Below, one piece after another: positions 1-63,533 of a DNA stretch of 64,000 bases (its first letter is position 1; every line of letters starts with the position of its first letter). Both the position numbers and the translations under genes were made by a program. Below the pieces are notes generated by a model. The model saw nothing but the letters and a program-made list of their open reading frames with translations. It made no database searches and was not told the origin of the DNA. Source of the DNA: Arenicellales bacterium (GTDB taxonomy: Bacteria > Pseudomonadota > Gammaproteobacteria > Arenicellales > JAJDZL01); contig CBDEVD010000005.1 in NCBI GenBank assembly GCA_965243645.1, positions 965,132 through 1,029,131 of the forward strand, read 5' to 3'.

Positions 1-210
1 CAGCACCACTTCCGGGATCGTTCTGAAAAAGTCGATGAATCCATTGGCTAGGCGGAATGCTAAGCCCCGCTGTTGTAATTTACCGAGGCAAGCGATCATC
101 CCAACCACGATGCCGATCAACAGTGATACTGCAGAGATCCAAATGGTGACACCGAACGCCTGCAGGAGATCTGGCCCATAGCGTATGAGTTGGTCCCATT
201 CAAATCTCAT
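1..210 (-). CDS. amino-acid ABC transporter permease (N-terminal part; gene runs off the window)
   Basis: ATG at 210-208 overlaps the TGA of the upstream permease (TGATG). My translation is MRFEWDQLIRYGPDLLQAFGVTIWISAVSL..., a typical HisM/HisQ-type permease N-terminus. Confidence 0.7.
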   Translation of the reverse strand, partial: MRFEWDQLIRYGPDLLQAFGVTIWISAVSLLIGIVVGMIACLGKLQQRGLAFRLANGFIDFFRTIPEVVL

Positions 211-950
211 CAGCGTTCTCTTTTTTGGAGGAAGTACTCCAGTTTCAAGGTCGTCTTACTCATCGCGATGCCGACTACAAAGTAAATCAACGCGATGGCA
301 CTGAACAATTCCACTGGTTTGAATGTCACGTTACTGATGCGGTTGGTAACCGTCATCAACTCGCTGACTTGTAAAATCGACAGGATGGCCGTACCCTTGA
401 AGAAACTGATGGTCAAATTGACCAATGGCGGAATCATTGTGCGAATCGCCGGTGGCAGTATGACCCGAGTCCAGCGAATCCTGGCCGGTAGCGCCAGGGA
501 ATAAGCAGCCTCCCACTGTCCCTTGGGTACGGATTCGATTCCAGCTCGCACAATTTCGGTGAAATAGGCGCTGGCCTGAAGTGTAATGCCGATTACACCA
601 CTTTCTAGTGCCGTAGTATTAATCCCTGTCACCAAAGGCAGTGCAAAGTGAATCCAGATTAACTGCACCAGAAGTGGTGTGTTGCGCCAAATTTCAACAA
701 AGGCGATAACGATCCAACGCAGTGGTGCAATATTGGATTGACTGGCGATCGCCAGTATAGTTCCAAATGTTAAGCCGGCAACCGCCGCGCATGCTGTTAA
801 GCCTAGAGTTACCAGCAACCCCCTGAGCAGTACCTCGCGATACTCCCAAACCACAGAAAAGTCGAGTGACAATAACAAATTCCAATTCAGAAAATAGGCC
901 AGTGTTCCCAACGCCAGGAGCAGAACTACCGGAAAGGAATACTTAGCCAC
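210..950 (-). CDS. amino-acid ABC transporter permease (His/Glu/Gln/Arg/opine family)
   Basis: 246-aa polytopic membrane ORF with the conserved EAA-like loop (EAAYSLALPARIRWTRVILPPAIR) of polar amino-acid uptake permeases. Confidence 0.85.
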   Translation of the reverse strand: MAKYSFPVVLLLALGTLAYFLNWNLLLSLDFSVVWEYREVLLRGLLVTLGLTACAAVAGLTFGTILAIASQSNIAPLRWIVIAFVEIWRNTPLLVQLIWIHFALPLVTGINTTALESGVIGITLQASAYFTEIVRAGIESVPKGQWEAAYSLALPARIRWTRVILPPAIRTMIPPLVNLTISFFKGTAILSILQVSELMTVTNRISNVTFKPVELFSAIALIYFVVGIAMSKTTLKLEYFLQKRER

Positions 951-986
951 GGAGTCAACTGTGCATCGAAAATTCGTCTTGAACGG

Positions 987-3182
987 TCACTCGGACAGAA
1001 ATCGTTCAAGTACGTTTTGTGTCAGTCTCGAGATGTTGTTATTGAAGCCATTCCAGGGTAAACTACCGCAGTAGGTAATGGAGCCGACCGAGAAGACAAA
1101 GCCATTTTGGGGTGTTTCGAAAATCACCATGTCTGATCGAATCAGTTTGTCAACCGGATCTCCAGTGCGAGTTTTCTGGTGTGACAGTATTTCTTCCGGT
1201 ACCAGGACAAAGTGATCAGGATAAGTTTCTGAACTGGCCAGCACAACAGTGTTGAGCGGTGATCCAAGGCCGTAATCCACCCGATCGAGTTCAAAGCCGG
1301 CAGCACCACCGCCGTTTAACCCAAAGTCTCCAAGTATTTCATCGTCGATGCCGTCAAACACCCATTCAAATTTATCGGGAATATCGGGATTTCTGCGGTA
1401 ATACGTTCCCTGAAAATCGCCTTGCCCGGTAAAGCCCACGCCCGCCAACTGCTGGGGTGGACGACCATTGCGTAACCACATACCACCGTATTCACCATCC
1501 AAGGCGTTGTAATATTCACCCGGTTCTGCTGCCCAAGTACGAATGCCGCCTTCGGCTCTTCGAATTTCCAACATGCCAGGCAGATCATCGCGAATGCCAA
1601 CCTTCCAGTAAAAGCCGTTACCACCCATATACATGAAGCGTCCGCCGGTGCGTGAATACTCCAGGATCGCATCCAATGTATTGCTGGTGTGATACTCGGG
1701 ATGACTCATGGTCAATACAACTTGATAAGGCTTGAGAATTGCACTGCCATCGGCATGGACATCCTCATCCGCGACCACGTCATAGTCGTATCCGAGGTGC
1801 TCCAGCCAGGCTAGCAAATGGGTATCGGCTGGTAGGTGTCGCATCCCGGAGCCAGCATAAGGGCGGAAAATCGTGATGTAATTGGGCCGCATAGTAAGCG
1901 ACGGTCGCAAGCCTGAGGACAAACTGATTCCGCTTCCATCATTGTGTTCGTTGTAGGTCGACAAACCAAAGTTGCGAATCTCGTCCGGTGTCCAGCGCCG
2001 CGTCCCTCTTTCCTTGACTAGTGCGTCGTATGCTGGCCCGGCTATGGAACGGGCTTGGTTGTTGTAAACGGTATAGGTGAAAGTGGGGACAATGACACAA
2101 ATTCTGGATTGCGGTAGTCCCGTTTTTGGGCGAACGTAGAAAGGGATGTCTTCATAGGCATCCTGACACTCAATCCGCATGGAATACATTGCGCTTGCAA
2201 AATGATCGGGGACTTTGAACGAAAAGTCAGTCTGCCACTGACAGTCATAAATATCGTCGTCATGAAAGTGAATGGCACCATATTCGTGCGGCGCGTGTTT
2301 CCACGCCATTTCCCGTCCGCTCCAGTTGGAGCCGCGCATTGCACGGGTCGGACAATTGACTAAGTTGCCATGAAGTTCATTGGGGCCAACATCGGTGACT
2401 GACTGGGTGCTGATACCTTGAGCAAAGTCCCACTCAGCTATCGATGCCGGATGTCTTGTGTTTTCGGACCAACTGAGCTTTGAATTCTCCGGATAAAGCC
2501 CGTTATGAAGGCCTGGCCTTTCAATTTTGCCATTGAAATGCCGTGCCTTGACCCCGGTGTCTGAAGACGCAATCAGCACCTCATCGACGGTGGTCAATGG
2601 TGGTAGCCCTTCGCATCGACTCGTTGTGAAGTCATTGTCAATTCCAACATAGTTCTCAAGGTGCGCGCTCTGACCAATGCTGACCGTCTCGGTGGCAAGG
2701 TCAATCGAACACCAAACGGAGTACCAGTTTCGCTGTTGCAAGCGGGCGTTTAAAGTCAATTCAAACGACTCATTGATACAGACGCTGAGGCGGCCGCGGG
2801 AATCGATTGACAGATCCAATAGTCGTGAGCCGTTTGTATCTCGCATACATATGACGGATTGTTGTCCGCCATCAGGGAGGGTTGGCCAAATATTTGCGGC
2901 AAGTGTGAATTGATCGTGGTGAGCCAATTGTTCTGCGACATTGATGCGTGCGTAGGAACCGAGCTTGGCCTGCTGTCTTCGGGACGGAAACTTGCCGGAA
3001 AAAACTGAACTTAAATCCTCTTCGATAATCCCGGGTCCATCCGGATTAGGATCCGCACAGGTGATTCGAACCAGTTTGACGGAGTAAGGTTCGTCGAATT
3101 CACTACTGATTTTGAACTGAATGATCTGGTTGTGACCGACAGACCACCGGTTTGCGTAACCCGAAATTGGAATCATATTCAT
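987..3182 (-). CDS. N,N-dimethylformamidase large-subunit-like protein (LamG-like plus amidase-like domains)
   Basis: 731-aa ORF. Its size and overall sequence character (N-terminal jelly-roll-like region, C-terminal GGNGFYWKV / GGGAAGFELD segments) match my recollection of the DmfA2-like family. No small-subunit gene is adjacent. Confidence 0.5.
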   Translation of the reverse strand: MNMIPISGYANRWSVGHNQIIQFKISSEFDEPYSVKLVRITCADPNPDGPGIIEEDLSSVFSGKFPSRRQQAKLGSYARINVAEQLAHHDQFTLAANIWPTLPDGGQQSVICMRDTNGSRLLDLSIDSRGRLSVCINESFELTLNARLQQRNWYSVWCSIDLATETVSIGQSAHLENYVGIDNDFTTSRCEGLPPLTTVDEVLIASSDTGVKARHFNGKIERPGLHNGLYPENSKLSWSENTRHPASIAEWDFAQGISTQSVTDVGPNELHGNLVNCPTRAMRGSNWSGREMAWKHAPHEYGAIHFHDDDIYDCQWQTDFSFKVPDHFASAMYSMRIECQDAYEDIPFYVRPKTGLPQSRICVIVPTFTYTVYNNQARSIAGPAYDALVKERGTRRWTPDEIRNFGLSTYNEHNDGSGISLSSGLRPSLTMRPNYITIFRPYAGSGMRHLPADTHLLAWLEHLGYDYDVVADEDVHADGSAILKPYQVVLTMSHPEYHTSNTLDAILEYSRTGGRFMYMGGNGFYWKVGIRDDLPGMLEIRRAEGGIRTWAAEPGEYYNALDGEYGGMWLRNGRPPQQLAGVGFTGQGDFQGTYYRRNPDIPDKFEWVFDGIDDEILGDFGLNGGGAAGFELDRVDYGLGSPLNTVVLASSETYPDHFVLVPEEILSHQKTRTGDPVDKLIRSDMVIFETPQNGFVFSVGSITYCGSLPWNGFNNNISRLTQNVLERFLSE

Positions 3183-3446
3183 TTACCTCATCATAACTGT
3201 CCTAAAAGTTATTGTAGTTACTAAGTTGGCAAGCCATTCGATTCAATGCAAAGCGCTTGTTTAGGCTAATAATTGAATCTCAAACCATTCAGACTTCGTT
3301 GAAATATCGGCGTTCTAGCAGGTAGTAATAGATTTACACTCTTGCTCTTAGTGTGTTTACTCAAGGCTGTCGCTTACAGTAAAATTTTTGGCTGTTTGAA
3401 TCGATAGAGCATTTGATTAACTCCAGATTTCGGTGGAATTTTTCCA

Positions 3447-4523
3447 ATGAGCACACCTGCATCAAAAATTGACTACGATGGACAGTGGATTGAAATTTCC
3501 ATAGAAACAATTCACGTGACACTGGTAGCAATCTATATCGGGCTTGGTTGCGATTCAAAGGAAGCATCCCTGGTGGCTGAGCATTTGATCGATTCCAGCC
3601 TTTGCGGTGTTGAAAGTCACGGTGTCATGCGAACCTTGCAGTATGCCGAGCAATTTCAGTCCGGTACTTTGAACCCACGAGCGCGACCGCACACAGAGTT
3701 CAGTAGTGGCAGTATAGAAATTATCGACGGCGATGGCGGCTTGGGCATTCAGTCAATGATACTGGCTTACGAACAAGGTATGGCGCGAGCGGCTGAGACG
3801 GGGATTTGTGCGACGGCGGTTCGCAATGTCGGTCACACGGGTCGGCTTGGTGCCTACGCCGATGATGCTGCGACGAAAGGCTTTCTTACCATCTGTATGG
3901 GTGGAGGGAATCGCTATAACTGGCGACAAGCTGCGCCTCACGGAGGCGCCAAAGGAATATTACCCACCAACCCCTGGTGTATTGGAATACCAGGTGGTGT
4001 TCAAGGACCGGTGGTTGTCGATTTCGCAACGTCCAAAATCGCCGGCGGGTGGATTTACGCGGCACACTCTGCAGGCGCCCGATTGCCGGCGGGGAGTGTC
4101 ATCGACCGTGATGGTAATCCCACGATTGACCCCGCGGATTATTTCAATGGGGGTGCGATTCTTCCAGCTGGTGGACACAAAGGCTACGGCCTTGCAGTGA
4201 TTGCCGAGTTGGTTGCAGAGGCGCTCGTTGGTCCTGCGAAAGTGGAATGTAACTGGATGGTTATGGTACTTGATACCAAACAGTTGCGATCAAAGTCTCA
4301 CATGGAAACCATTGCAGAGGAAATTTTAGCAGAACTGCGAGAATGCCCGCCAGCGCCAGGGTTTGACAAGGTAGAAATTCCCGGTGAAAGAGAGCGGCTG
4401 CACCGAATGCGTTGTGGAGAGGTGATTATGCTGCCGGCTCCGACTTGGCAGCAAATTCAAATGCTTGAGTCGCAAGTCCAGACTGCTGGTAACGAATTTG
4501 TAAAGATGACAAGTAGGGATTGA
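3447..4523 (+). CDS. Ldh_2 family (malate/L-lactate/ureidoglycolate or delta1-pyrroline/piperideine-2-carboxylate) dehydrogenase
   Basis: 358 aa with Ldh_2 hallmarks: ESHGVMR, NVGHTGRLGAY, PAGGHKGYGLA. Confidence 0.8.
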   Translation: MSTPASKIDYDGQWIEISIETIHVTLVAIYIGLGCDSKEASLVAEHLIDSSLCGVESHGVMRTLQYAEQFQSGTLNPRARPHTEFSSGSIEIIDGDGGLGIQSMILAYEQGMARAAETGICATAVRNVGHTGRLGAYADDAATKGFLTICMGGGNRYNWRQAAPHGGAKGILPTNPWCIGIPGGVQGPVVVDFATSKIAGGWIYAAHSAGARLPAGSVIDRDGNPTIDPADYFNGGAILPAGGHKGYGLAVIAELVAEALVGPAKVECNWMVMVLDTKQLRSKSHMETIAEEILAELRECPPAPGFDKVEIPGERERLHRMRCGEVIMLPAPTWQQIQMLESQVQTAGNEFVKMTSRD

Positions 4524-4573
4524 GTCACTAAGTCTATGTTGTCAGGACACGTATCAAAATGACAAAATTCGGA

Positions 4574-5065
4574 TTATTTAAATACTTCGTGCAGGTTTGT
4601 CACGACCACAACGCGGTTCAACCACTGGTCCAGCTGCAGTTGGTCAGCGTTTTCGACTCTTGCTTCGACATCATCTCCCAAGTCGCCGAACCGTTGCTGC
4701 AATAGTCTGATCAGTATCGAGCGCGAGGTTTGATTGGAACCTTGTTCAATCCCTCGTTCAATTCCTCGTTCAATCCCTTGCTGTACGAATTCCTGTTCCC
4801 AAGTTGGAAACCCTCTGGCTACCATATCTGTGACCTCCTGAATTTCACCTGATTCAAACCAATAGCTTTTTCGAATGTTCTGTAACGCGTAGATAAACGT
4901 GTTGATTGTCTCGATGTATTCGTCTGACTGTCCGGCTGCTCTTGCGATTTTATTCGTCGTTTGAACTTGTTCCTCAAAATCTCTGTAATTTGTGGCATGC
5001 ACGCTTCTCAACAATGGCACAAACACATTGTCAGCCGGCAACGGCCCCGATGATGTCAATGACAT
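4574..5065 (-). CDS. stand-alone Rpn C-terminal domain protein (product of the duplicated 3' gene half)
   Basis: The 163-aa ORF is near-identical to residues ~185-344 of the upstream Rpn protein. Its ATG (5065) is created at the duplication junction, 8 nt after the TAG of the full-length gene. Confidence 0.6.
   Translation of the reverse strand: MSLTSSGPLPADNVFVPLLRSVHATNYRDFEEQVQTTNKIARAAGQSDEYIETINTFIYALQNIRKSYWFESGEIQEVTDMVARGFPTWEQEFVQQGIERGIERGIEQGSNQTSRSILIRLLQQRFGDLGDDVEARVENADQLQLDQWLNRVVVVTNLHEVFK
4742..4777. repeat. 12-bp coding tandem repeat, 3 units (GIER/GIEQ)
   Basis: ttgttcaatccc / tcgttcaattcc / tcgttcaatccc, read directly from the sequence. Confidence 0.9.
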
Positions 5066-5073
5066 AATTCGGA

Positions 5074-6108
5074 CTACTCAAATACTTCGTACAGGTTTGA
5101 CACGACCACAACGCGGTTCAACCACTGTTCCAGCTGCAGTTGGTCAGCGTTTTCGACTCTTGCTTCGACATCATCTCCCAAGTCACCGAACCGTTGCTGC
5201 AATAGTCTAATCAGTATCGAGCGCGAGGTTTGATTGGAACCTTGTTCAATCCCTCGTTCGATCCCTTGTTCAATCCCTTGTTCAATCCCTCGTTCGATCC
5301 CTTTTTTAATCCCTTGTTCAATCCCTTGCTGTACGAATTCCTGTTCCCAAGTTGGAAACCCTCTGGCTACCATATCTGTGACCTCCTGAATTTCGCCTGA
5401 TTCAAACCAATAGCTTTTTCGAATGTTCTGTAACGCGTAGATAAACGTGTTGATTGTCTCGATGTATTCGTCTGACTGTCCGGCTGCTCTTGCGATTTTA
5501 TTCGTCGTTTGAACTTGTTCCTCAAAATCTCTGTAATTTGTGGCATGCACGCTTCTCAACAATGGCACAAACACATTGTCAGCCGGCAACGGCCCCGATG
5601 TCAAATGATGTTTCCCATCGATCAGTACATATTGTGCATCAACAAAGGGTTGCTTGAACTTGAAACCCTTAGGCGTTTCAATTAAATCACCTATACGTGT
5701 TGCCGCATGCCAAGGTTCTTCACCATTATAAAAAACCGTCGGAATGATCATTGGTAGACTTGCATCTGCCGGTTGGGTGGCGTGGAGATGAGCATACCAG
5801 TTGAAAATATACTCTCCAATTCGAACTGCCATGCCACGTTGTACAGTGTTTTGCGCTTCGATCATGAACAGCAGGTACAGTTCATCATCGTTGTGGTAGT
5901 TAACCTTCCACATTATGTCGTTAAGCCGTTGTTTGGATAAGTGTTTGGGGCCGCGACCTCCGATAGATTCTGTAGGGTATTGGGTAAGAGACTCAAGGTT
6001 CAAATGACTAATGATGTCAGGGTCCATGAAGGCGCAGATAAACTCTTCAATCACCCAACGGTTAGCGAACAGTGATTTGTAGTCGAGGTCTGACATTAAC
6101 CTACCCAA
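5074..6108 (-). CDS. Rpn family recombination-promoting nuclease / putative transposase (YhgA-like PD-(D/E)XK)
   Basis: 344 aa. The N-terminus (DYKSLFANRWVIEEFI...LLFMIEAQNTV) is typical of YhgA/Rpn proteins. The C-terminal region carries GIE[RQ] repeats. Confidence 0.8.
   Translation of the reverse strand: MGRLMSDLDYKSLFANRWVIEEFICAFMDPDIISHLNLESLTQYPTESIGGRGPKHLSKQRLNDIMWKVNYHNDDELYLLFMIEAQNTVQRGMAVRIGEYIFNWYAHLHATQPADASLPMIIPTVFYNGEEPWHAATRIGDLIETPKGFKFKQPFVDAQYVLIDGKHHLTSGPLPADNVFVPLLRSVHATNYRDFEEQVQTTNKIARAAGQSDEYIETINTFIYALQNIRKSYWFESGEIQEVTDMVARGFPTWEQEFVQQGIEQGIKKGIERGIEQGIEQGIERGIEQGSNQTSRSILIRLLQQRFGDLGDDVEARVENADQLQLEQWLNRVVVVSNLYEVFE
5242..5325. repeat. 12-bp coding tandem repeat, 7 units (GIEQ/GIER/GIKK)
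   Basis: Seven consecutive units of the ttgttcaatccc / tcgttcgatccc / ttttttaatccc type, against 3 units in the duplicated copy. Confidence 0.9.
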
Positions 6109-6384: not shown

Positions 6385-7554
6385 TCAAGCATTCTGTAGT
6401 TTCCTCATTAGCCCGCTCAAGGGGATCATCGTAACGTTATCTGAGACCTTAATTTCCTCACCGCCTCCGTAAACAACAAACTTTTGGGTTGCGCCAATTT
6501 CATCACAAGTGCGACTGAAAACCCTGCTGATTTTAGGAGCGAGCCCGAATTTGATTTCAACAGCCCAAATCTCGTTGTATGCCAAACGGATGATCAAATC
6601 GATTTCAGCACCAGTGGATGCTTGATAAAAATAGGTTTCGGCACGATCCGGCAAAACAGAATGAATGTTTTCGATGACGAGCCCCTCCCAGCTCTTTCCC
6701 AATACAGGGTGGGACAACAGTGCTTCATAACTCAAAATGCCCAACAGTTGGTGTAGAACACCACTGTCTCTAACGTAGCAGCGCGGCGATTTAATCCATC
6801 GCTTTTTGGTGTTCTCGTACCAAGGCATCAAGCGTCTGACCAGCCGCAGATCAACCAGAATATCAACGTACCGGCTGACTGTTTTCGCGTCGATTTCAAG
6901 ACTGCCGCCAAGTTTTGAAAAATTGACTGTTTCTCCCTGCATATGGGACAGCATCGTCCACAATCGTCGCAATCGTGTTGCCGGAATAGGGTAGGCTAAT
7001 TGTGGAATATCCCGTTCGAGATAGGTGGTTACCAGGTCTGACAGCCATCTATTGCTCGATTCGTCACACCCAGCCAGATAACTGTCAGGAAATCCACCGC
7101 GTAGCCATCTGGAATTTAACGCAGATCTCTGTGGTTCGATTTCCAGAATATTCAGGCCATACAATTCGAGGTAACCAATGCGTCCCGCCAGGGTTTCTGA
7201 GGTTTGTCGCAACAAGTTCATCGACGCCGAACCAAGCAGCAAAAACTGCTTCCCTTTTCGCCCTTCCCATCGATTGTCGTCAATTACGCTACGTAAGACG
7301 GAAAAAATTTCAGGAGCCCGTTGAATTTCGTCGAGAATGATCAGTTTATCTGAACGGTCAGCAAAAAAACTCAATGGGTCGTCCAACAGTTGGGCATCTC
7401 TAGGGTTTTGCAGATCAATGTAAACAGAATCTTCCTGTTGCGCGATTAATTTGGCGAGCGTAGTTTTCCCCACTTGTCGTGCGCCGACGAGGGCAACAGC
7501 TGGACGTTGCTCAATCAGGTTGCACAGTTTTGTTCTTAGCCAACGATCTAACAT
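6385..7554 (-). CDS. AAA-family ATPase with DUF4143-type C-terminal domain (COG1373-like)
   Basis: Walker A VGARQVGKTTLAK, Walker B LIILDEIQ, and a long C-terminal region typical of ATPase/DUF4143 proteins. I prefer the start at the internal ATG 7554 (MLDRWL...). The ORF track extends to 7590. Confidence 0.75.
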   Translation of the reverse strand: MLDRWLRTKLCNLIEQRPAVALVGARQVGKTTLAKLIAQQEDSVYIDLQNPRDAQLLDDPLSFFADRSDKLIILDEIQRAPEIFSVLRSVIDDNRWEGRKGKQFLLLGSASMNLLRQTSETLAGRIGYLELYGLNILEIEPQRSALNSRWLRGGFPDSYLAGCDESSNRWLSDLVTTYLERDIPQLAYPIPATRLRRLWTMLSHMQGETVNFSKLGGSLEIDAKTVSRYVDILVDLRLVRRLMPWYENTKKRWIKSPRCYVRDSGVLHQLLGILSYEALLSHPVLGKSWEGLVIENIHSVLPDRAETYFYQASTGAEIDLIIRLAYNEIWAVEIKFGLAPKISRVFSRTCDEIGATQKFVVYGGGEEIKVSDNVTMIPLSGLMRKLQNA

Positions 7555-7726
7555 TATGTGAATTATAGGAATTACATTTCGGAAATACACGATTATTCCC
7601 CAAATTAGCCGACAAGTTAGATCGAATGGACTGATTACACCGTCGAGAGTGCGTTTATCCCTGTTGGTATTAGATCATCAGGTGGGACTTGTGTCAGGTG
7701 GTGTTTTTATTGGGTTCCATATGGGG

Positions 7727-8716
7727 TTAGACTTCAACAGCCACCACAGTCATGCAGTCTCCAGCTTGGATCAGTCCTGGAAAATGTCGTCCCGCTAAAA
7801 TTCCACTGCGCCTCGAGCGATATACAACTGGCTCAACCCCAGTCCGGTCAAGCGGCCACACTTTTGCCACACAATCGCCCTGCGACACAGCATCTCCCAA
7901 ATCGACCACAGGCTCAAGCAGACCATCGTGTTCACTGATCACAAAGCAGTCGCCATCCGGCATTTCCAGATGAATCGTTGGTTCAATGACCGGCTCAGCT
8001 TGCAGAATTCCAGCATGGGCGAGAACATTGTTCAAACCCTTTTTTGCGAGCCGAACCGTTGAGGCGCGGGTGGTGCCACCCCCACCCAACTCAGTCGAAA
8101 CGAATACTTTCCCCTGATCTTCAACTGCAGTATCGTACATTCCCGTGTTGTCAATCTCGAGCAGGATGGTCGAATAGGGTGCGTTGAATGCCTCCATTGC
8201 TGCCACACAGGCAGCTTGCTGTGCTTTATTCTCTAGAATGTGAGCGGCGGCAAGTGGTACAAATTCAAGTGTTTTGCCGCCTGAGTGTATGTCGACGACA
8301 ACATCTGCTTCCGGTACCAGTGTGCGCATGAAAAAATCAGCAACCTTTTCTGTGACGGTTCCCCGAGGATGTCCAGGGAAGACGCGATTCATGTTACCAT
8401 CATCAATGGGAGAGTTGCGAGTGCCGGCTCGGAAAGCCGGGTAGTTGAATGCCGGAATGATGATGACCCGGCCGGTGATGTCAAGCGGGTCCAGATTCAA
8501 CGCCAGGTGTTGTAACGCGACCGGTCCTTCGTATTCGTCACCGTGATTGGCACCGGTCAGCAGCGCAGTCGGGCCAGACCCATTCTGAATGACGGTCAAG
8601 GGTATCATGATTGAACCCCAGGCAGAGTCATTTCTGCTATGTGGCAGATTCAAAAAACCATGATGGGCACCATCCTGATCCAACGGGATGGTAGGAGTAA
8701 TCGGATTATTCTGCAT
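7727..8716 (-). CDS. doeB: N-alpha-acetyl-L-2,4-diaminobutyrate deacetylase (succinylglutamate desuccinylase/aspartoacylase family), DoeB/EutE
   Basis: 329-aa AstE/AspA-family zinc hydrolase (GANHGDEYEG, DIHSGG) placed as the last gene after doeA in a eutABC-doeAB arrangement. Confidence 0.75.
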   Translation of the reverse strand: MQNNPITPTIPLDQDGAHHGFLNLPHSRNDSAWGSIMIPLTVIQNGSGPTALLTGANHGDEYEGPVALQHLALNLDPLDITGRVIIIPAFNYPAFRAGTRNSPIDDGNMNRVFPGHPRGTVTEKVADFFMRTLVPEADVVVDIHSGGKTLEFVPLAAAHILENKAQQAACVAAMEAFNAPYSTILLEIDNTGMYDTAVEDQGKVFVSTELGGGGTTRASTVRLAKKGLNNVLAHAGILQAEPVIEPTIHLEMPDGDCFVISEHDGLLEPVVDLGDAVSQGDCVAKVWPLDRTGVEPVVYRSRRSGILAGRHFPGLIQAGDCMTVVAVEV

Positions 8717-8748
8717 ATCGATTCTCGTTGACGAGTTGGTTAATTTAT

Positions 8749-9945
8749 TCAGTCGACGACGATTAAATCCCGTTCGACATTACAAAGCCGCTGACCACCG
8801 CTCTCGGTTACTACGAATGATTCCGACACCGCACAGCCGAAATCGTCCAGCCAAACCCCCGATTGAAAGTGAAAACACATCCCGGCTTGCAAAACCGTAT
8901 GATCGCCGGGTCGCAAACTGCAAGTCCGCTCACCCCAGTCCGGTGGATAGCCTACCCCAATTGAATAGCCAACGCGACTTTCCTTGGTAATGCCATTTCG
9001 ATTGAGTACCGCTTGCCAGCCAGCTTCAACTTGTTCACAGGTATTGCCCGGTCGGGCCAATTCCAAACCGACATCCACACCTTCAACTATCACCTGCGCC
9101 AGTGTTTTTATTTTTTCGGGAGGTTTACCGATATGAACTGTTCGCGTCAACGGTGAGTGATAGCGGCGCCGGACACCAGCTAATTCCACCATGACAAGGA
9201 CATCGGATGGAATGGGTAAATCTGACCAGGTTAAGTGCGGGGTACTGGTTCCCTCATCAACCTGGATCAGGGGGCAAAGTGCCGTGTAATCACCACCGCG
9301 ACCATTAGTCCCGGCGATCTGTGCACGATAAACTTCTGCAATGACTTCATTTTGTGGTACACCGGCTCGAATTTTGGAGATTGTAGCATTCATGGTTTCA
9401 GTGCCAATTTCACCAGCCTGTTTCATTAACGCGATTTCCCCATCTGATTTCACCAGGCGTGCCCAATTTACGAGGTCACCATTGTTGGACAATTTTGCAT
9501 TAGGCAATCCCTTGACCAATGTTTCATGACATCGTGCGGTGTAAAAATGCGCGTCAAGTTCAACCCCGACTCGGGCATCAGACCATCCACGATCATCGAT
9601 CAGATCGACCAACTCATCATAGGGATGACCAACCGGGTGTTGCACCAGGCTCTCACTGTACGGGACGATGTTGACTGCAGGTAGGTCGGTTGTGACATGT
9701 GCTGCCTTGGCATCCTGAGCACGGCCAAACCAGATTGGCCATTCCTCTTCCTGGTGTACAAGCACGCATTGGGGAACATAAAACGACCAACCATCGAATC
9801 CAGTCAGCCAGCACATGTTGCTGGGATCCTGGCAGATGATCAGATCGAAACCCGCCTGTGCCATACGTTGCTTGACGTCATTGACGCGCGCACGGTACTC
9901 CGCAGTGGAAAATAGTTTTTCAAACAAAGGGGTGTTTTGATTCAT
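8749..9945 (-). CDS. doeA: ectoine hydrolase (M24/creatinase-fold), DoeA/EutD
   Basis: 398 aa. The N-terminal DPSNMCWLTGFDGWSFYVPQCVLV motif and pita-bread C-terminal domain match ectoine hydrolases. Confidence 0.8.
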   Translation of the reverse strand: MNQNTPLFEKLFSTAEYRARVNDVKQRMAQAGFDLIICQDPSNMCWLTGFDGWSFYVPQCVLVHQEEEWPIWFGRAQDAKAAHVTTDLPAVNIVPYSESLVQHPVGHPYDELVDLIDDRGWSDARVGVELDAHFYTARCHETLVKGLPNAKLSNNGDLVNWARLVKSDGEIALMKQAGEIGTETMNATISKIRAGVPQNEVIAEVYRAQIAGTNGRGGDYTALCPLIQVDEGTSTPHLTWSDLPIPSDVLVMVELAGVRRRYHSPLTRTVHIGKPPEKIKTLAQVIVEGVDVGLELARPGNTCEQVEAGWQAVLNRNGITKESRVGYSIGVGYPPDWGERTCSLRPGDHTVLQAGMCFHFQSGVWLDDFGCAVSESFVVTESGGQRLCNVERDLIVVD

Positions 9946-9948
9946 TGG

Positions 9949-10941
9949 TTAGGCCTCAATCATAATTCCTGAGTCAGTTGCATCGGCACGTTGTTTGGCA
10001 AATGTCGCAATGGCTGTATCTTGTACCCCGGTGCCAGTAAGATCGCAAATCGTAATCTCATCAGCCGATACACGACCTGCAGATTGTCCAGCGACAATAT
10101 CCCCCAACTCAACAACTGCGCAGTCCGATTTGACAATACCTGCTGCAATTGCGTGGTGCAGTTCACCGAGAATGGCGGTTTGTGCGCGTCGGTCTGCGAT
10201 GTATGTTGTCGCCACGCCAAGGCAATTGGGTTCAAGTTCATTCTTGTGAGCCTGATCGGCACCCATCGCGGTAATGTGCTGACCGGGCTGCAGCCAGTCT
10301 GCTTTCACTAGGGGAGTTGCCGAAGGGGTGGTCGTCACGATGACGTCCGCGGATTTAACCGCATGTTCACGATCATGACTGAACTCGACACGAATACCAA
10401 GTTTATCGGCTAACTGCACCGCGGTTGTATGACCCTTGGCGTGATCTCTTGCCCAGATGACCGCAGACTCAATTGGACGCACCAGCGTCAAGGCTTCGAG
10501 CTGCAGTCTGGATTGCTGGCCGGCACCAATCACACAGGCACGCCTGGCATCTTCTCGGGCCAGGTATCGAGCAGCGACTGCACCGGCTGCTGCAGTGCGG
10601 ATATCAGTCAGGAAGCCGTTGTCCAGCAAAATGGCTTCGACCATACCAGTCTTAACCGCAAAAAGTACCATCAGACCGGAGGTACTCGGTAGGCCAAATT
10701 TGGGATTGTCAAAAAACCCGGGCGACATTTTGATCGCGAAACTTTCTACACCTGGCACATAGGCTGTTTTAACATCGACCTCGCCATTGGATGGTTCAAT
10801 GGCCATCGACATGATTGGCGGCATAACCACCTCACCACCTGCCAGTACAGCAAATGCCGATTCAATGCAGTCCACCGCATCGAGATCCAAGTGAACAATA
10901 TTACGCAGTTCCTTTTCAGTCAATAACTTAAGATTTGGCAT
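9949..10941 (-). CDS. eutC: ornithine cyclodeaminase/mu-crystallin family protein, ectoine utilization protein EutC
   Basis: 330-aa OCD family protein with a Rossmann motif (VIGAGQQSRLQLEA), located between eutB and doeA. Confidence 0.75.
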   Translation of the reverse strand: MPNLKLLTEKELRNIVHLDLDAVDCIESAFAVLAGGEVVMPPIMSMAIEPSNGEVDVKTAYVPGVESFAIKMSPGFFDNPKFGLPSTSGLMVLFAVKTGMVEAILLDNGFLTDIRTAAAGAVAARYLAREDARRACVIGAGQQSRLQLEALTLVRPIESAVIWARDHAKGHTTAVQLADKLGIRVEFSHDREHAVKSADVIVTTTPSATPLVKADWLQPGQHITAMGADQAHKNELEPNCLGVATTYIADRRAQTAILGELHHAIAAGIVKSDCAVVELGDIVAGQSAGRVSADEITICDLTGTGVQDTAIATFAKQRADATDSGIMIEA

Positions 10942-10943
10942 GA

Positions 10944-11969
10944 TTAAGCGCTTTGTTGGTTAACATCAACAAACTCACCGGAAATAATTCGATAGTGTAA
11001 ATCCATATCGATATTGCCGCCACTGGCGATTACCGCGAGTGGGCCAGTAGCTTTAACCTTCCCAGCCAGTAGCGCAGCGATACCAACTGAGCCCGAGCCC
11101 TCCAGAATCTGTTTTTCGTTCCAGTAAGCGTAGCGGATGGCTTCATCAATCTCAGTTTCACTGACCAGCACGAACTCATCAATCAGCTCGCCAGCCATCG
11201 CAAAGGTGTATTGATTATCGAGGCCGATTCCACCTCCAAGTGCGTCCGCCAGTGATGGCAGCTCTGCAACCATAACAGGATGCCCGGCTTGCAGACTGGT
11301 ATACATCGCGGCACCGCGTTGCATTGACACACCGATAACTCGAATGCTTGGGTTGAATGCCTTGAGTGCTGTCGCGACGCCTGCGATCAAACCACCACCT
11401 GACACCGGGACGATTACCGCTTCGATATCTGGTAGCTGCTGTTGCAGTTCCAGTCCCAGCGTACCCTGACCCGCGATAATGTCGAAGTGATCGAACGGTG
11501 GTAACATCGTCATGTTCTGTTCTGCGACCAACCGGTCAACTTCAACTTGTGCGTCATCTTGGGATCGACCCACAATGCGCACCTCGGCACCATGTGACCG
11601 GATGCCATCAATCTTGTTTTGCGGAACCAGGTTGGACATGCAGATCACGCAGCGAATTCCTGCTAAAGAGGCTGCATAGGCAAGCCCACGTCCGTGGTTG
11701 CCCGTCGAGACACCGACCACGCCATCGGCTCGCTGCTGTTTGGTGAGATTCAAAATTGCATTGGTCGCACCGCGCAGTTTGAAGCTCCCGGTCAGTTGCT
11801 GGTGTTCGAGTTTCAGGAATACAGCACCGCCGGTTTGCTCACTCAGTGCTGTTGAATGAACGAGTGGCGTTTGATGAACAGATGCGACGATACGTGCGCT
11901 TGCTTGCTCAATATCGGAAAGGGTTATGTGCCTGTTGGCCATAGTCAGAATAGTCCGGATCGCAATCAA
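10944..11969 (-). CDS. eutB: PLP-dependent threonine-dehydratase-like hydroxyectoine utilization dehydratase EutB
   Basis: 341 aa with the PLP lysine motif (TGSFKLRGA) and a glycine loop (SGGGLIAG). Its start overlaps the upstream gene (ATGA). Confidence 0.75.
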   Translation of the reverse strand: MIAIRTILTMANRHITLSDIEQASARIVASVHQTPLVHSTALSEQTGGAVFLKLEHQQLTGSFKLRGATNAILNLTKQQRADGVVGVSTGNHGRGLAYAASLAGIRCVICMSNLVPQNKIDGIRSHGAEVRIVGRSQDDAQVEVDRLVAEQNMTMLPPFDHFDIIAGQGTLGLELQQQLPDIEAVIVPVSGGGLIAGVATALKAFNPSIRVIGVSMQRGAAMYTSLQAGHPVMVAELPSLADALGGGIGLDNQYTFAMAGELIDEFVLVSETEIDEAIRYAYWNEKQILEGSGSVGIAALLAGKVKATGPLAVIASGGNIDMDLHYRIISGEFVDVNQQSA

Positions 11970-12859
11970 TCCGATTGGCTGTTGTTTTGCTGGTGATCAA
12001 AAATAGAAGTGTAGCCATCGGACCAATCCGGCGGTAGTGGCACGATCAATTCTTCATGATGGGCATAACGCGGCAGCGAGCCACGAACCAGGACATTGTA
12101 ATTTACGCTGGGGTAGGCAGGTGCGGTATACGGCATGGCATCTGCCGCACTGTAAGTCAGAACCAGTGCAGGACGATTACTGGAACTGAAATTGCTGGCC
12201 GAGCCGTGTATGGTGCGACTGTGATGCACCGATACTGTTCCTGGTGGGCCGATGAGCGAAATTGCGTTGGCTACCCCCGCGCTCTCAAGGTCACGCTCCG
12301 ATATGGCTCCGGTCCATTGCCCAAGTTCGTCATAGTGGTGGAAAATCTCACCTTTATGACTGCCTGGAATAACCTGCAAGGGACCCTGTTCAGGCGTCGC
12401 ACCATCCAGCAACAACAAAAACTGCAAGGTTCCCGAGTGGGTGTGAGGATAAAAGACCAGGTCTTGGTGCCACTTGACTTGTGCACCGCCATCTGACCAT
12501 TTGAAATTCACCATGAGTTCACGGAACTTCAGGTTTGGACCGAGCAAATCGACAGCAATATCCGGAATGACAGAATCGGTGCATAGCTGCCAGAATATCG
12601 AATCGAATTCATCGAGGTATGCGACCCGACGCAGACGAGGATTGCTGGCGCTGTGATCGGGTTCCAAATCAATGCGGCGAGTCGACTGCTTTAGGTCCCG
12701 CGTTGATTGAATGACTTCATCCAGGGCATCTCTTAAGGCATCCAGGCAGTCTTTGCCAATTAATCCCGGAAACAAGAGATAGCCATGATCGTAATATTCT
12801 TCACGCTGTACCTGTGTGATCACAGTTGGCGAATACGTGTTGATTTCATTGAGTTGCAT
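11966..12859 (-). CDS. phytanoyl-CoA dioxygenase (PhyH) family Fe(II)/2-oxoglutarate dioxygenase
   Basis: 297 aa with an HxD...H facial triad candidate (KWHQDLVFYP ... VHHSRTIHGS). Translationally coupled to eutB. Confidence 0.75.
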   Translation of the reverse strand: MQLNEINTYSPTVITQVQREEYYDHGYLLFPGLIGKDCLDALRDALDEVIQSTRDLKQSTRRIDLEPDHSASNPRLRRVAYLDEFDSIFWQLCTDSVIPDIAVDLLGPNLKFRELMVNFKWSDGGAQVKWHQDLVFYPHTHSGTLQFLLLLDGATPEQGPLQVIPGSHKGEIFHHYDELGQWTGAISERDLESAGVANAISLIGPPGTVSVHHSRTIHGSASNFSSSNRPALVLTYSAADAMPYTAPAYPSVNYNVLVRGSLPRYAHHEELIVPLPPDWSDGYTSIFDHQQNNSQSD

Positions 12860-61945: not shown

Positions 61946-63205
61946 CTATTGCTCAGTCGAATAAGCGTTCAGAAACTGCCTTCCCCATAGAAGCCTTTTA
62001 TCCACATCGCTTAGTTCAGCTTCTTCGCAAACTGTATCCCAATTCTGAGTGATGGCAGTAATGAGTTTCTCAAAAATTTTGCGGGCTTCCGTTTCAGAAA
62101 GCAGAAAATTATGGGCTGTGTCAACACAGGATCTCAACCGACTGAGGTTGTTGTTGCCACAGATCAGCATGGCTTGTGAGGCTTCATTGCCCGCGCGGTT
62201 TTGTGGACAGATGTCATAAGCAGGCGTGAGTGTTATATTTTTTCCATCCCAAAATGCAGAATGATTGCGCGCGTGATCGTCAGTATTGCCGCAAAGAATA
62301 TTGAAAACCAATCGAGCAAACACTTCGTCAAGAGTCTTGCGGGGTTCTGTAAAACGATGCCTAATAATTTCAGCAAAGGTTTCGTAACTGGCATACCGCG
62401 CCATCATTTCATCAAGGCCAAGCAATGTCAATACCGAGACCATGGGCTTACGAAGCCAAGAATCGTGTCTGGGAATACGATCGAACCGTTCGATCAGAAG
62501 CACATTTTTACCCGCTACCCTGGTCAGTCGAACCGGCGCAACATTCAGTGCTGCTAACGCTGCCAGCCGCATTGCGATGTATTCAGCTTTGATGACATTG
62601 TAAGTATCAGTGCTAGAGGAAAATTTCGCGATGTACTTCCTGTTTCCATCTTGAATCAGGGCCTTTGGACGTGCACCGCCAATCGCACTACCATGAAACA
62701 ATGCCTGATCCAACTCAGGGGTGAGTAGGACTCCCTTTTCAACCCGTTCAGCCGATTCAATCAGCTCTTCAATGGTTGGATTAATCGTGGTACGCGGCAC
62801 ATACTCGGTCGGCGAACGTTGAAAATCCAGTGCTCCAATCCGGTCTGAACCAGATTCCAGCAAATACGTCAATTCACCCAGTTCATTGGTATCGGTGTTC
62901 GTACCCTTGAGTCCCAATAATTTGTTGATAATCACCCGCCGTCCCCATGCATCAGGTGCGGCATCTCGAATACATCCAGGCATAGTCAAGCCGTCTGTCA
63001 AGGGATGTATTCCAGTTTGGAGGGGCAATTCCGACTCATAAATCGAAATGGCCGGTTTGCTGCTGGCCGTTCGTTCAAGATAGCTTTTACCATAGTTAAA
63101 CCAGATACTGCCATTGTCAGCCTCCAACCGACCGGCTACAACAGGCTCCGTTTCTTCTGGCAACCATATCCAGACAAATGCTTCTTTGTCATGACTAGAA
63201 GTCAT
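61946..63205 (-). CDS. hipA: type II toxin HipA-family serine/threonine kinase
   Basis: About 419 aa from ATG 63205 with HipA N-terminal and kinase regions (GGARPK, NTDDHARNHS). Overlaps hipB by 11 nt. Confidence 0.85.
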   Translation of the reverse strand: MTSSHDKEAFVWIWLPEETEPVVAGRLEADNGSIWFNYGKSYLERTASSKPAISIYESELPLQTGIHPLTDGLTMPGCIRDAAPDAWGRRVIINKLLGLKGTNTDTNELGELTYLLESGSDRIGALDFQRSPTEYVPRTTINPTIEELIESAERVEKGVLLTPELDQALFHGSAIGGARPKALIQDGNRKYIAKFSSSTDTYNVIKAEYIAMRLAALAALNVAPVRLTRVAGKNVLLIERFDRIPRHDSWLRKPMVSVLTLLGLDEMMARYASYETFAEIIRHRFTEPRKTLDEVFARLVFNILCGNTDDHARNHSAFWDGKNITLTPAYDICPQNRAGNEASQAMLICGNNNLSRLRSCVDTAHNFLLSETEARKIFEKLITAITQNWDTVCEEAELSDVDKRLLWGRQFLNAYSTEQ

Positions 63206-63533
63206 CGCGCACCGTCTTGTTCTTGTGGCGAACAGATTTTGGCAACAGTTCCAACTCAGCTTCCGCACGGTGCAGATGTTTTGTCAATGTGTTCTGATCG
63301 GCATCATAAAGCTTTACACCAACGATGGTCGCAACTTCAAACACGACGCCGATTTCACATTTGAGATTGCCATTTTCGATGCGCTGTAGCAGACCTCTGG
63401 AAATTCCGGCGCGCTGCGCTAAATCCTGCGCAGTAAGTCTACGTTTTTTGCGCGCCGTACGAATCAATTCACCAAGAAGGGTGCATGCAGTTTGGCTGTA
63501 TCTTGAATAGCTGCGTGTAATGGATTTAGGCAT
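63195..63533 (-). CDS. hipB: HipB-like XRE-family HTH antitoxin
   Basis: 112 aa with an HTH (LTAQDLAQRAGISRGLLQRIENG), directly upstream of hipA. Confidence 0.8.
   Translation of the reverse strand: MPKSITRSYSRYSQTACTLLGELIRTARKKRRLTAQDLAQRAGISRGLLQRIENGNLKCEIGVVFEVATIVGVKLYDADQNTLTKHLHRAEAELELLPKSVRHKNKTVRDDF

Follow-up and report, generated by a model that had tools for sequence, protein, structure and literature searches.

A probable Rpn toxin gene with a built-in antitoxin, followed by a recent tandem copy of its own 3' half, in an uncultured gammaproteobacterium

Within a 64-kb stretch of DNA of an Arenicellales bacterium (the window, i.e., the whole 64,000 nucleotides analysed), we distinguished a full-length rpn gene (rpnL) followed directly by a second, incomplete copy of its own 3' half. 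The reading that we favor, and consider likely, is that of an Rpn toxin gene with a built-in antitoxin, in which a recent partial tandem duplication created a downstream gene of the rpnSs type. This layout has been on record for Escherichia coli since 2023 and is found repeatedly in other bacteria, so the locus is a further example of it and does not constitute a new type of system. In E. coli, RpnS antitoxins are made from internal starts within rpn genes, the number of 4-aa repeats, which begin 8–20 residues after the internal Met, varies among Rpn proteins, and separate downstream “rpnSs” copies occur, e.g., ypaA after rpnE and rpnCSs with rpnC (Zhong et al., 2023, PNAS, PMC10400941). The same authors treated RpnS proteins that have a gene of their own as equivalent to DUF4351 proteins and reported that rpnSs genes can be lost by fusion with the N-terminal domain (PMC10400941). 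The original prediction for this DNA had rendered the Rpn literature accurately; the separate antitoxin gene and the self-rearranging locus that it put forward are both already contained in that publication.

The rpnL gene (5074–6096, minus strand) encodes a predicted Rpn/YhgA-like PD-(D/E)XK nuclease of 340 aa, counted from ATG 6096. The open reading frame (ORF) reaches further, to TTG 6108 (5074–6108, minus strand; ORF list), and the length of 344 aa given originally holds if translation is read from that codon; ATG 6096 is equivalent to the start of the orthologue, and it is the 340-aa form that is present in the protein database (P0001). The long protein matches Pfam PF04754 (Transposase_31) with 61.8 bits (cut-off 21; E 9e-17; residues 11–167), and the majority of the 1936 homologues found carry the same domain. 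When aligned with E. coli RpnA and RpnE, residues D3, D60, E80, Q82 and R92 fall in invariant columns and correspond to D11, D63, E82, Q84 and R94 of RpnA, all of which are required for its activity, as documented by mutant phenotypes (Kingston, 2017, PMC5350276). The codons of the catalytic motif D60...E80-x-Q82 (RpnA D63, E82 and Q84) are located at 5851–5919 (minus strand), and D3, D60, E80 and Q82, but not R92, are also invariant or nearly so across 24 homologues. The Pfam match and the five conserved activity residues bear out the proposed Rpn/YhgA-like identity, and RpnL is a predicted toxic DNA endonuclease. Its score against NCBIfam TIGR01784 (Rpn family) is 27.5 bits, below the curated cut-off of 52.1; judged by these comparisons, the protein represents a divergent Rpn clade; at about 30% identity, its closest relatives that have a name carry an Rpn family annotation.

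In its AlphaFold2 model, the long protein has a confident alpha/beta core (block pLDDT 84–93). The top Foldseek matches of this full-length model were the PD-(D/E)XK nucleases EcoO109I, EndoMS, LmuA and XisH, all at E >= 0.15; a phmmer search of the PDB gave no match even at E 10. At the C-terminus, PF14261 (DUF4351) is matched with 21.7 bits by the long protein and 22.2 bits by the copy, both short of the 25 bits required (E about 2e-4), and many homologues carry this domain. NCBIfam FliH matches were discarded as low-complexity matches to the GIEQ repeat helix; PADLOC, which contains no Rpn model, gave for the Rpn protein only a spurious 17-bit match in the repeat tract.

Inside rpnL, an AGGAGG sequence (5387–5382) is separated by an 8-nt spacer from an in-frame ATG (5373–5371), and this element (5371–5387, minus strand) is the only in-frame rpnL start equipped with a Shine-Dalgarno sequence. 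The AGGAGG-N8-ATG pattern occurs twice in the window, at this site and at its duplicate, and the AGGAGG of rpnL stands out, since even a 5-mer Shine-Dalgarno core was found for only 2 of the 42 long ORFs. The internal Met is kept in the orthologue and across the family. Translation from it would yield an RpnS product of 99 aa (5074–5373), in which, as in the downstream copy, the first repeat follows the Met by 16 residues, within the published 8–20. The repeat tract (5240–5328, minus strand) is composed of seven 12-bp units (Tandem Repeats Finder: period 12, 7.4 copies), translated as GIEQ GIKK GIER GIEQ GIEQ GIER GIEQ. In the models of the RpnS region, three short helices come after a long one (pLDDT 84–93); neither the sequence search, which matched no PDB chain, nor Foldseek, which with the model of the shorter, 83-aa downstream product (see below) returned nothing below E 0.15, connected the C-terminal domain with the solved RpnA-S structure. 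A promoter-like site within rpnL (5604–5575) did not exceed the shuffle expectation. If the system behaves as in E. coli, RpnS would bind RpnL through their common C-terminal helical domain and block it, this pairing would need equal repeat numbers, and the 7-repeat RpnS made within rpnL would be the cognate antitoxin. The locus had been proposed as a “two-gene version” of an intragenic toxin-antitoxin; this view is contradicted by the perfect Shine-Dalgarno sequence of the internal start, and because rpnL keeps that start, the downstream gene is better placed as an additional copy, of the rpnSs type known from the literature.

The near-identical, head-to-tail duplication of the rpn 3' half noted originally was recovered by a repeat search as two direct-repeat blocks, 4558–4780/5058–5280 (95% identity, offset 500) and 4740–5039/5288–5587 (97% identity, offset 548), and a 500-bp repeat at 95–97% identity is far outside chance. 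At the protein level, the long and short forms share 87% identity over 175 columns (BLASTP), the copy matching residues 170–344 of the 344-aa form, and the sole gap of this alignment (16 aa) equals four repeat units. The copied segment extends from residue 166 (340-aa numbering; 170 in the 344-aa form) to 11–19 nt beyond the stop codon. The junction (5055–5073, minus strand) consists of the copied 3' flank (5063–5073, corresponding to 4563–4573) and the 8-nt microhomology GTCAATGA (5055–5062, plus strand). Comparison of the sequence, the alignment and the list of differences traced this microhomology of 8–9 nt, TCAA(A)TGA on the plus strand, to the flank TCAAAATGA at 4554–4562 and the gene sequence GTCAAATGA at about 5600–5608. 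The duplicated flank, originally given as 13 bp, instead amounts to 11 unambiguous nt plus the 8–9 nt of microhomology. The junction also contains a 3-nt in-frame insertion (LTSSG vs. LTSG) and an ATG (5065) placed 8 nt past the rpnL TAG (5074–5076), whose counterpart in the distal flank is TTG (4565 A vs. 5065 T, plus strand). The segment was duplicated head to tail, with the 8–9 nt microhomology at the point of joining.

The contig is metagenome-derived, and the two copies resemble allelic variants, differing in repeat number and a few SNPs, as might be expected if the tandem arrangement were an assembly artefact, e.g., two strain variants joined in series. Moreover, no second assembly containing the junction was found: exact look-ups of the long and short proteins retrieved no other record, and metagenome scans with a junction 37-mer and a conserved 35-mer at the internal start gave no match. 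An artefact is nevertheless very improbable in our estimation, as the junction is not a break where variants diverge but a specific novel sequence at a microhomology, with a duplicated flank and the in-frame insertion, and the same architecture occurs both in E. coli K-12, whose genome is finished, and in a number of unrelated assemblies.

The downstream copy forms a 163-aa ORF starting at the junction ATG (4574–5065, minus strand), as previously read and as confirmed in the ORF list; it was also predicted by a gene caller (P0121). Encoded in it are the helical portion of the Transposase_31 region, a linker, the repeats and the DUF4351-like domain, and a homology search with it retrieved only itself and two weak short proteins. 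The duplicated 0.5-kb segment brings the internal ribosome-binding site and ATG along (AGGAGG 4839–4834, 8 nt, ATG 4825–4823; 4823–4839, minus strand), so placed that an rpnSs-type product of 83 aa (4574–4825) is predicted, whose AlphaFold2 model is helical (pLDDT 84–90 for residues 30–83). Since ATG 4825 has the duplicated Shine-Dalgarno sequence and ATG 5065 has none, the most likely downstream product would be the 83-aa protein, instead of or besides the 163-aa one, whose synthesis might be possible by re-initiation 8 nt past the TAG. The repeat tract of the copy (4740–4778, minus strand) has three 12-bp units, GIER GIER GIEQ (Tandem Repeats Finder: period 12, 3.2 copies), and the C-terminal tails read ...VVVSNLYEVFE in the long protein and ...VVVTNLHEVFK in the copy; Tandem Repeats Finder and the protein alignment thereby corroborated both the three vs. 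seven GIE[QRK] units and the differing last residues that had been described. No intrinsic terminator was predicted between the copies or after them, which makes co-transcription of rpnL and the copy likely, and a search of the 64-kb window against Rfam gave no RNA family.

Sequence comparisons indicate that the copy originates from its own upstream gene and not from another rpn: it is closest to the upstream RpnS (94% identity over 83 aligned residues vs. 76% to the orthologue), and the 64-kb window contains no further rpn gene. The syntenic orthologue (locus L001; 74% identity), likewise flanked by Ldh_2 and DMFA2_C, contains only one rpn, with 5 repeats, and is devoid of a downstream copy, so the duplication is recent; among these close relatives the number of repeat units is 7 (rpnL), 3 (copy) and 5 (orthologue). 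Two loci of the same clade at 48–49% identity, found with a 4-sequence alignment searched against reference genomes, likewise have no downstream copy, and a search of reference-genome contigs with a single protein as the query found no close relative. The rpn gene, for its part, keeps its position between metabolic genes. A neighboring gene outside the duplication (6385–7590, minus strand) encodes an AAA_14 + DUF4143 ATPase (Pfam, PADLOC) and matches the PADLOC candidate defence family PDC-S01 (PDLC04790, E 7.6e-87); it is missing from L001, where the slot holds EamA and an IS1595 zinc-ribbon ORF.

After the duplication, the copies came to differ in four 12-bp units and in substitutions located mostly at the extreme 3' end. 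Two nucleotide differences were found in the 275 nt before the repeats vs. nine in the 182 nt after them (Fisher p = 0.009), and the first 126 codons contain 0 nonsynonymous and 3 synonymous changes, while the last 20 codons contain 4 nonsynonymous ones. Gene conversion that keeps the 5' part uniform could account equally well for this bias of the divergence towards the 3' end, and the substitutions are too few to demonstrate selection on the downstream copy.

The recent origin allows the possibility, which we regard as real but doubtful, that the copy is a functionless by-product of a microhomology-mediated duplication, bound for decay or deletion. The syntenic orthologue and the other clade members lack it, the junction resembles illegitimate recombination, and the copy is so young (about 0.7% divergence before the repeats) that an intact ORF is expected without selection; furthermore, ypaA is a RefSeq pseudogene, and truncated or degenerate copies occur elsewhere (L061 copy 2 and L014). 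This explanation does not readily accommodate the independent recurrence of the layout across many lineages, where the copy invariably contains the ribosome-binding site and ATG, nor the clustering of nonsynonymous changes in the tail instead of an even spread, nor the detectable expression of the YpaA (RpnESs) protein in E. coli (PMC10400941).

The expression of YpaA would also fit a working second antitoxin gene that raises the antitoxin dose from ATG 5065 and/or ATG 4825. The ORF is intact, the ribosome-binding site and ATG were duplicated with it, co-transcription is likely given that no terminator is predicted between the genes, and the first 126 aligned codons show 0 nonsynonymous vs. 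3 synonymous differences; on the other side, purifying selection on the copy is not demonstrable from so small a number of substitutions, and rpnL has its own internal start and hence no need of a second gene. A further argument against such a role is the mismatch of 7 vs. 3 repeats, since a difference of one repeat abolished RpnC neutralisation in E. coli (PMC10400941), and we consider a second antitoxin unlikely. The claim that a copy of the C-terminal part has become an ORF of its own stands, whereas a role as antitoxin of the adjacent toxin is unlikely. With the locus read as a toxin gene with a built-in antitoxin and a recent partial duplicate, the downstream product, with its 3 repeats and altered tail, probably pairs poorly with the adjacent RpnL, and on the published RpnC data the copy is predicted not to be its antitoxin; the repeat-match rule applied here is based only on the addition of one repeat to E. 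coli RpnC, and RpnL has a C-terminal domain of another, DUF4351-like type.

The closest known counterparts are the E. coli pairs rpnE/ypaA and rpnC/rpnCSs. In the rpnE/ypaA locus of K-12, the two genes are 12 nt apart and 84% identical, differ by one 12-bp unit and have diverged in the tail. This and the present locus both have a same-strand copy of the RpnS region right after the stop codon (8 nt here, 12 nt in E. coli) that includes the internal ribosome-binding site and ATG and differs from its parent by whole 12-bp (4-aa) units, with the strongest divergence at the extreme C-terminus; in both, the copy is nearest to its own upstream gene, which argues for a local origin. In RefSeq, ypaA is annotated as a pseudogene. 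The segment copied here is larger, beginning 80 codons before the internal Met, which gives rise to the additional 163-aa ORF with its junction-derived ATG. Further differences are the repeat number (four units here, one in E. coli), the C-terminal domain (DUF4351-like here, a short tail of the E. coli RpnA/RpnE type there) and the host, an uncultured marine-type gammaproteobacterium. A cyanobacterial origin, to which the DUF4351 domain had seemed to point, was rejected: Rho shows identities of at most 78%, to uncultured Gammaproteobacteria, among them an uncultured Arenicella sp. (77%).

With the RpnL/RpnS systems more generally (E. coli RpnA-E, plasmid RpnP2 and Clostridioides difficile Rpn), the locus shares the PF04754 N-terminal domain including its D, D, E-x-Q and R residues, the in-frame internal start just before 4-aa repeats in a predicted long helix, and a repeat number variable between close relatives (7, 3 and 5 here). 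It differs from them in being known from its sequence alone and in its low identity to RpnA (19%). The 83/163-aa product also resembles stand-alone DUF4351 (PF14261) proteins in having the C-terminal motif of homologues annotated with this domain, ..LL..RFG.L......R........L..W..R...., with a Pfam score under the gathering threshold. An analogy cited by Zhong et al. (PMC10400941) is that of the TAEL repeats of EcoR124I/EcoR124II HsdS, where specificity is likewise retuned as entire 4-aa helical units are gained or lost; HsdS belongs to another family and its repeats set DNA-target spacing, not toxin-antitoxin pairing, so the likeness is one of analogy only.

In our view, the downstream copy is best understood as a spare C-terminal module in the course of divergence. 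If the direct repeats recombined, the locus would collapse into a new rpn allele that combines 3 repeats with the TNLHEVFK tail, so that toxin and antitoxin would change at the same time, and duplication, divergence and collapse would provide one route to the known hypervariability of the Rpn C-terminus. The recombination and collapse step is a conjecture; exact protein look-ups and metagenome scans found neither a collapsed allele nor a second assembly of the species. Two more far-reaching readings, to which we assign a small chance, are that the copy is a functional spare cassette instead of a relic, going through cycles in which the rpn 3' half is duplicated at a microhomology, repeat number and tail change independently in the silent or weakly used copy, and the locus collapses by homologous recombination, or that the 163-aa form is a longer regulator made by termination-reinitiation 8 nt after the rpnL stop. 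If the former were true, the cycle would switch the pairing specificity of toxin and antitoxin in one step and constitute a programmed-looking route of diversification for a defence gene; if the latter, the 163-aa form with its helical Transposase_31 half would be a new regulator, the synthesis of which is coupled one-to-one to translation of the toxin.

The survey of relatives for the same duplication and for repeat-number variation, suggested with the original prediction, revealed both. A C-terminal-only copy lies within 60 nt downstream in 5 of 74 rpn loci of a related subfamily, and three more of these loci have partial copies farther away; some downstream copies elsewhere are degenerate or truncated, L061 copy 2 and L014 being examples. 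The modest point added by this survey is that a downstream copy and its parent usually have unequal numbers of repeats (6 of 8 pairs), which, set beside the published rule of exact matching, raises the question of what purpose the copies serve. With this locus, the published rpnL/rpnS/rpnSs architecture is extended to an uncultured clade of Gammaproteobacteria that branches deeply and has a DUF4351-type tail. The locus is also a clean and young case, in which the origin of a downstream copy can be followed base by base, from the microhomology junction and the carried flank to the start codon created at the junction.

The full-length rpn gene lies on the minus strand (5074-6108) as a 344-aa ORF from TTG in the ORF list; its likely start is ATG 6096 (340 aa), which agrees with the start of its orthologue and with the 340-aa database form P0001. 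A second ORF (4574-5065, minus strand; 163 aa), a tandem copy of the 3' half of the gene, begins 8 nt past the TAG of the long gene. The repeat search distinguished two direct-repeat blocks, 4558-4780 matching 5058-5280 (95% identity) and 4740-5039 matching 5288-5587 (97% identity), whose offsets are 48 nt apart because a 12-bp unit is present in 7.4 copies in the long gene (5240-5328) and 3.2 copies in the downstream copy (4740-4778; Tandem Repeats Finder). The encoded proteins share 87% identity over 175 columns, with one 16-aa gap making up most of the difference, and end in VVVSNLYEVFE (long) and VVVTNLHEVFK (downstream). All elements of the duplication as described in the original prediction are present in the sequence, as judged by the repeat search, Tandem Repeats Finder, ORFs and protein alignment.

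Residues 11-167 of the long protein match Pfam model PF04754 (Transposase_31, YhgA-like; 61.8 bits, cut-off 21); the match to the NCBIfam Rpn model TIGR01784 (27.5 bits) is below the cut-off of 52.1. Just three of the 1936 homologues found in the database search exceed 40% identity (74, 47, and 48%), the others lying at about 30%. Five residues whose mutation abolishes the phenotypes of RpnA (D11, D63, E82, Q84 and R94; PMC5350276) are all conserved in the alignment with E. coli RpnA and RpnE, as D3, D60, E80, Q82 and R92, and all except R92 are invariant or nearly so in 24 homologues. In the AlphaFold2 model (mean pLDDT 77), the N-terminal alpha/beta domain and the helical C-terminal domain are predicted with confidence and the repeat region with low confidence; Foldseek searches of the PDB with this model gave weak matches only (E >= 0.15), with restriction-type nucleases at the top. 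We conclude that the long protein is a divergent, catalytically intact-looking member of the Rpn family, its membership and conserved catalytic residues being established at the sequence level. Sub-threshold NCBIfam matches of both proteins (5074-6108 and 4574-5065) to FliH (flagellar assembly) stem from the charged GIEQ-type helical repeat and do not point to a flagellar role.

In E. coli, RpnS, the short C-terminal product of an internal start, blocks toxicity, SOS induction and DNA cleavage by the full-length RpnL; both contain a helix with 4-aa repeats, the repeat count differing greatly within species, and in RpnC the addition of one repeat to just one of the two partners abolishes neutralization (PMC10400941). 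The same study reported phage protection by a plasmid Rpn, as well as second copies (ypaA after rpnE and a similar gene after rpnC), each of which arose independently from its own upstream gene (PMC10400941). It also identifies RpnS proteins that have a gene of their own with DUF4351 proteins. YpaA is expressed, genes of this type can disappear through deletion or through fusion to the N-terminal domain (PMC10400941), and RpnL itself may start the recombination that yields downstream copies and repeat changes (PMC10400941, Discussion). Both proposed readings of the window locus, a separate antitoxin gene and a nuclease rearranging its own locus, have therefore been published before (Zhong et al., 2023; PMC10400941); the interpretation holds in part, without its novelty and with the correction that the long gene retains its own internal start. 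The rpnE/ypaA locus of E. coli K-12 has the same anatomy as the window locus: ypaA begins 12 nt past rpnE and is an 84%-identical copy including AAAAGGAGAGATTAATG (ribosome-binding site and start), the two genes differ by exactly one 12-bp unit (KLEG), and the proteins share 97% identity in the first part and 55% in the last 20 columns.

When all in-frame ATG, GTG and TTG codons of the long gene were scanned for a Shine-Dalgarno sequence, a single start was found, ATG 5373, with AGGAGG at 8 nt. The predicted product (99 aa) begins with MVARGFPTWEQEFVQQ and continues into the repeats, the first of which lies 16 residues past the internal Met; RpnS proteins have 8-20 residues between Met and repeats (PMC10400941). 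The Met is kept in the 74% orthologue (GAGGGG 9 nt upstream), and most of the 24 homologues have a Met at the same place. The pattern AGGAGG-N6-9-ATG has only two matches in the 64-kb window, the internal start and its duplicate (4839-4823), and a 5-mer Shine-Dalgarno core is found at the nominal start of only 2/42 long ORFs; therefore the signal stands out locally. With this sole AGGAGG-N8-ATG start and its duplicate, the putative intragenic antitoxin signal is thus retained in the long gene and present a second time in the copy (predicted product of 83 aa), and we consider both signals likewise established. At the junction ATG 5065 no Shine-Dalgarno sequence was found, which is weak evidence against its use, because (i) most genes in the window are devoid of one, (ii) the ATG is 8 nt past a stop codon, so re-initiation is possible, and (iii) the gene caller predicted the 163-aa ORF (protein record P0121).

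On the plus strand, the 3' flank of the distal copy reads ...ATCAAAATGACAAAATTCGGA-TTA(stop), the long-gene interior at the duplication edge ...GTCAAATGATGTTTCC, and the duplication junction ...GTCAATGACATAATTCGGA-CTA(stop). The 3' flank is therefore joined to the gene interior within a microhomology of 8-9 nt, TCAA(A)TGA, and 11 unambiguous flank bases were carried with the duplication; an in-frame 3-nt insertion is also present at the junction (LTSSG vs. LTSG). The junction ATG (5065-5063) is TTG in the distal flank, a one-base difference (4565 vs. 5065), and therefore a start-capable codon existed in either state. Such a junction bears the signature of an illegitimate, microhomology-mediated tandem duplication and would not be expected from a simple assembler error; exact protein look-ups and metagenome scans found it in no second assembly. 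A sigma-70-like site (TTGACA-18-GACAAT, 10/12 matches; 5575-5604, minus strand) lies inside rpnL exactly where the duplicated segment begins, and in the distal copy its spacer is widened to 21 nt by the 3-nt insertion; the count of such sites in the region is not above shuffle expectation.

The closest relative, P0002 (74% identity), is encoded at a syntenic locus (L001), flanked on one side by Ldh_2 and a DMFA2_C-family gene; the opposite flank carries AstE/AspA, M24 peptidase, OCD and PALP genes. This locus contains one rpn with five repeat units, 70 nt from the convergent Ldh_2 gene. The downstream copy is absent there and in two further clade members (47-49% identity), which indicates a recent duplication specific to the window lineage. 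Differences between the two aligned copies are strongly skewed to the 3' end, with 2 in the 275 aligned nt before the repeats and 9 in the 182 after them (Fisher p = 0.009). The first 126 aligned codons contain 3 synonymous and 0 nonsynonymous differences; in the last 20, 4 codons have changed nonsynonymously and the stop codon is altered. Taking the orthologue as the outgroup places S to T and E to K in the downstream copy and D to E in the long gene, Y/H being ambiguous. The skew could stem from a fast-diverging tail or from gene conversion that homogenizes the 5' part, and the data fit both. Sequence comparison establishes the duplication, its junction and recency, and this divergence pattern.

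The host belongs to the uncultured Gammaproteobacteria: within the species-representative genome set, the top matches of its Rho (at most 78% identity) are uncultured Gammaproteobacteria, among them an uncultured Arenicella sp. (77%). Directly upstream of rpn (6385-7590, minus strand) is a gene for an AAA_14 and DUF4143 ATPase matching the PADLOC candidate defense family PDC-S01 (E 7.6e-87). An EamA transporter gene and an IS1595 zinc-ribbon ORF take its position at L001, so this slot is variable beside a conserved rpn. This neighbor, a single gene, agrees with published work in which rpn is enriched near defense genes. Around rpn lies a metabolic cluster, conserved and syntenic with L001, comprising PhyH, PALP, OCD/mu-crystallin, M24 creatinase-like and AstE/AspA genes (7727-12859, minus strand) and, on the other side, Ldh_2, DMFA2_C and ABC permease genes (210-4523); it resembles clusters for catabolism of ectoine or amino-acid derivatives. 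Elsewhere in the window, a 440-aa ORF (61946-63268, minus strand) with a HipA_C kinase domain (E 7e-50) suggests a HipA-like toxin.

For the survey of downstream copies, 80 loci of the related beta/gammaproteobacterial Rpn subfamily were retrieved, plus three close-clade loci, and the 74 with a complete rpn gene and at least 300 nt downstream were searched there with the N- and C-terminal parts of their own gene. Of the 74 loci, 5 (L017, L023, L032, L061 and L085) have a copy of the C-terminal part alone no more than 60 nt past the stop, three more (L007, L014 and L034) have partial copies further off, and four have full tandem rpn genes. The duplicated piece of L007 and L014, like that of the window, begins well upstream of the internal Met. 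Expressed as units in the downstream minus units in the upstream gene, the repeat difference is -4 in the window pair and L007, -3 in L023, -1 in L032, 0 in L017 and L061 (the latter with an additional degenerate copy containing more units), +1 in E. coli rpnE/ypaA and about +2 in L085. By these pairs and their repeat differences, the pattern is a recurrent one and the window is typical of it; the events are not all independent, given that L023 and L032 may be orthologous.

In L061 (Sulfuricellaceae MAG; 3951-4474), rpn is followed by two C-terminal copies, the first 97% identical with equal repeat number, the second with some eight MQQG units and a tail that is truncated or frameshifted. L014 (Candidatus Accumulibacter; 4077-5255) carries after rpn a 100%-identical partial copy, whose start lies within the nuclease domain (about residue 119) and which ends short of the extreme C-terminus; this reflects either a very recent partial duplication or a fault in the assembly. 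The protein P0004 (L002/L005, 6001-6948; Arenicellales MAG) has an N-terminal domain 47-48% identical to that of the window protein and a short tail similar to E. coli RpnA (...AERMLERGWPAKEIADCTGLSLSQVRNL...), not DUF4351-like, which suggests C-terminal domain swapping within the clade.

By analogy with E. coli, RpnL of the window would be a toxic endonuclease, with which the 99-aa RpnS would pair via the common C-terminal helical domain, provided that repeat lengths are equal. Under this rule, the 3-repeat downstream product would be poorly matched to the 7-repeat toxin, and if mismatched it would be a relic or else a spare module that is diverging. Homologous deletion could readily act on the two 0.5-kb direct repeats (~97% identity) and would create a new allele with toxin and antitoxin altered together; fusions of such genes with the N-terminal domain were noted by Zhong et al. 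(PMC10400941), and collapse of the window locus by this route is a conjecture.
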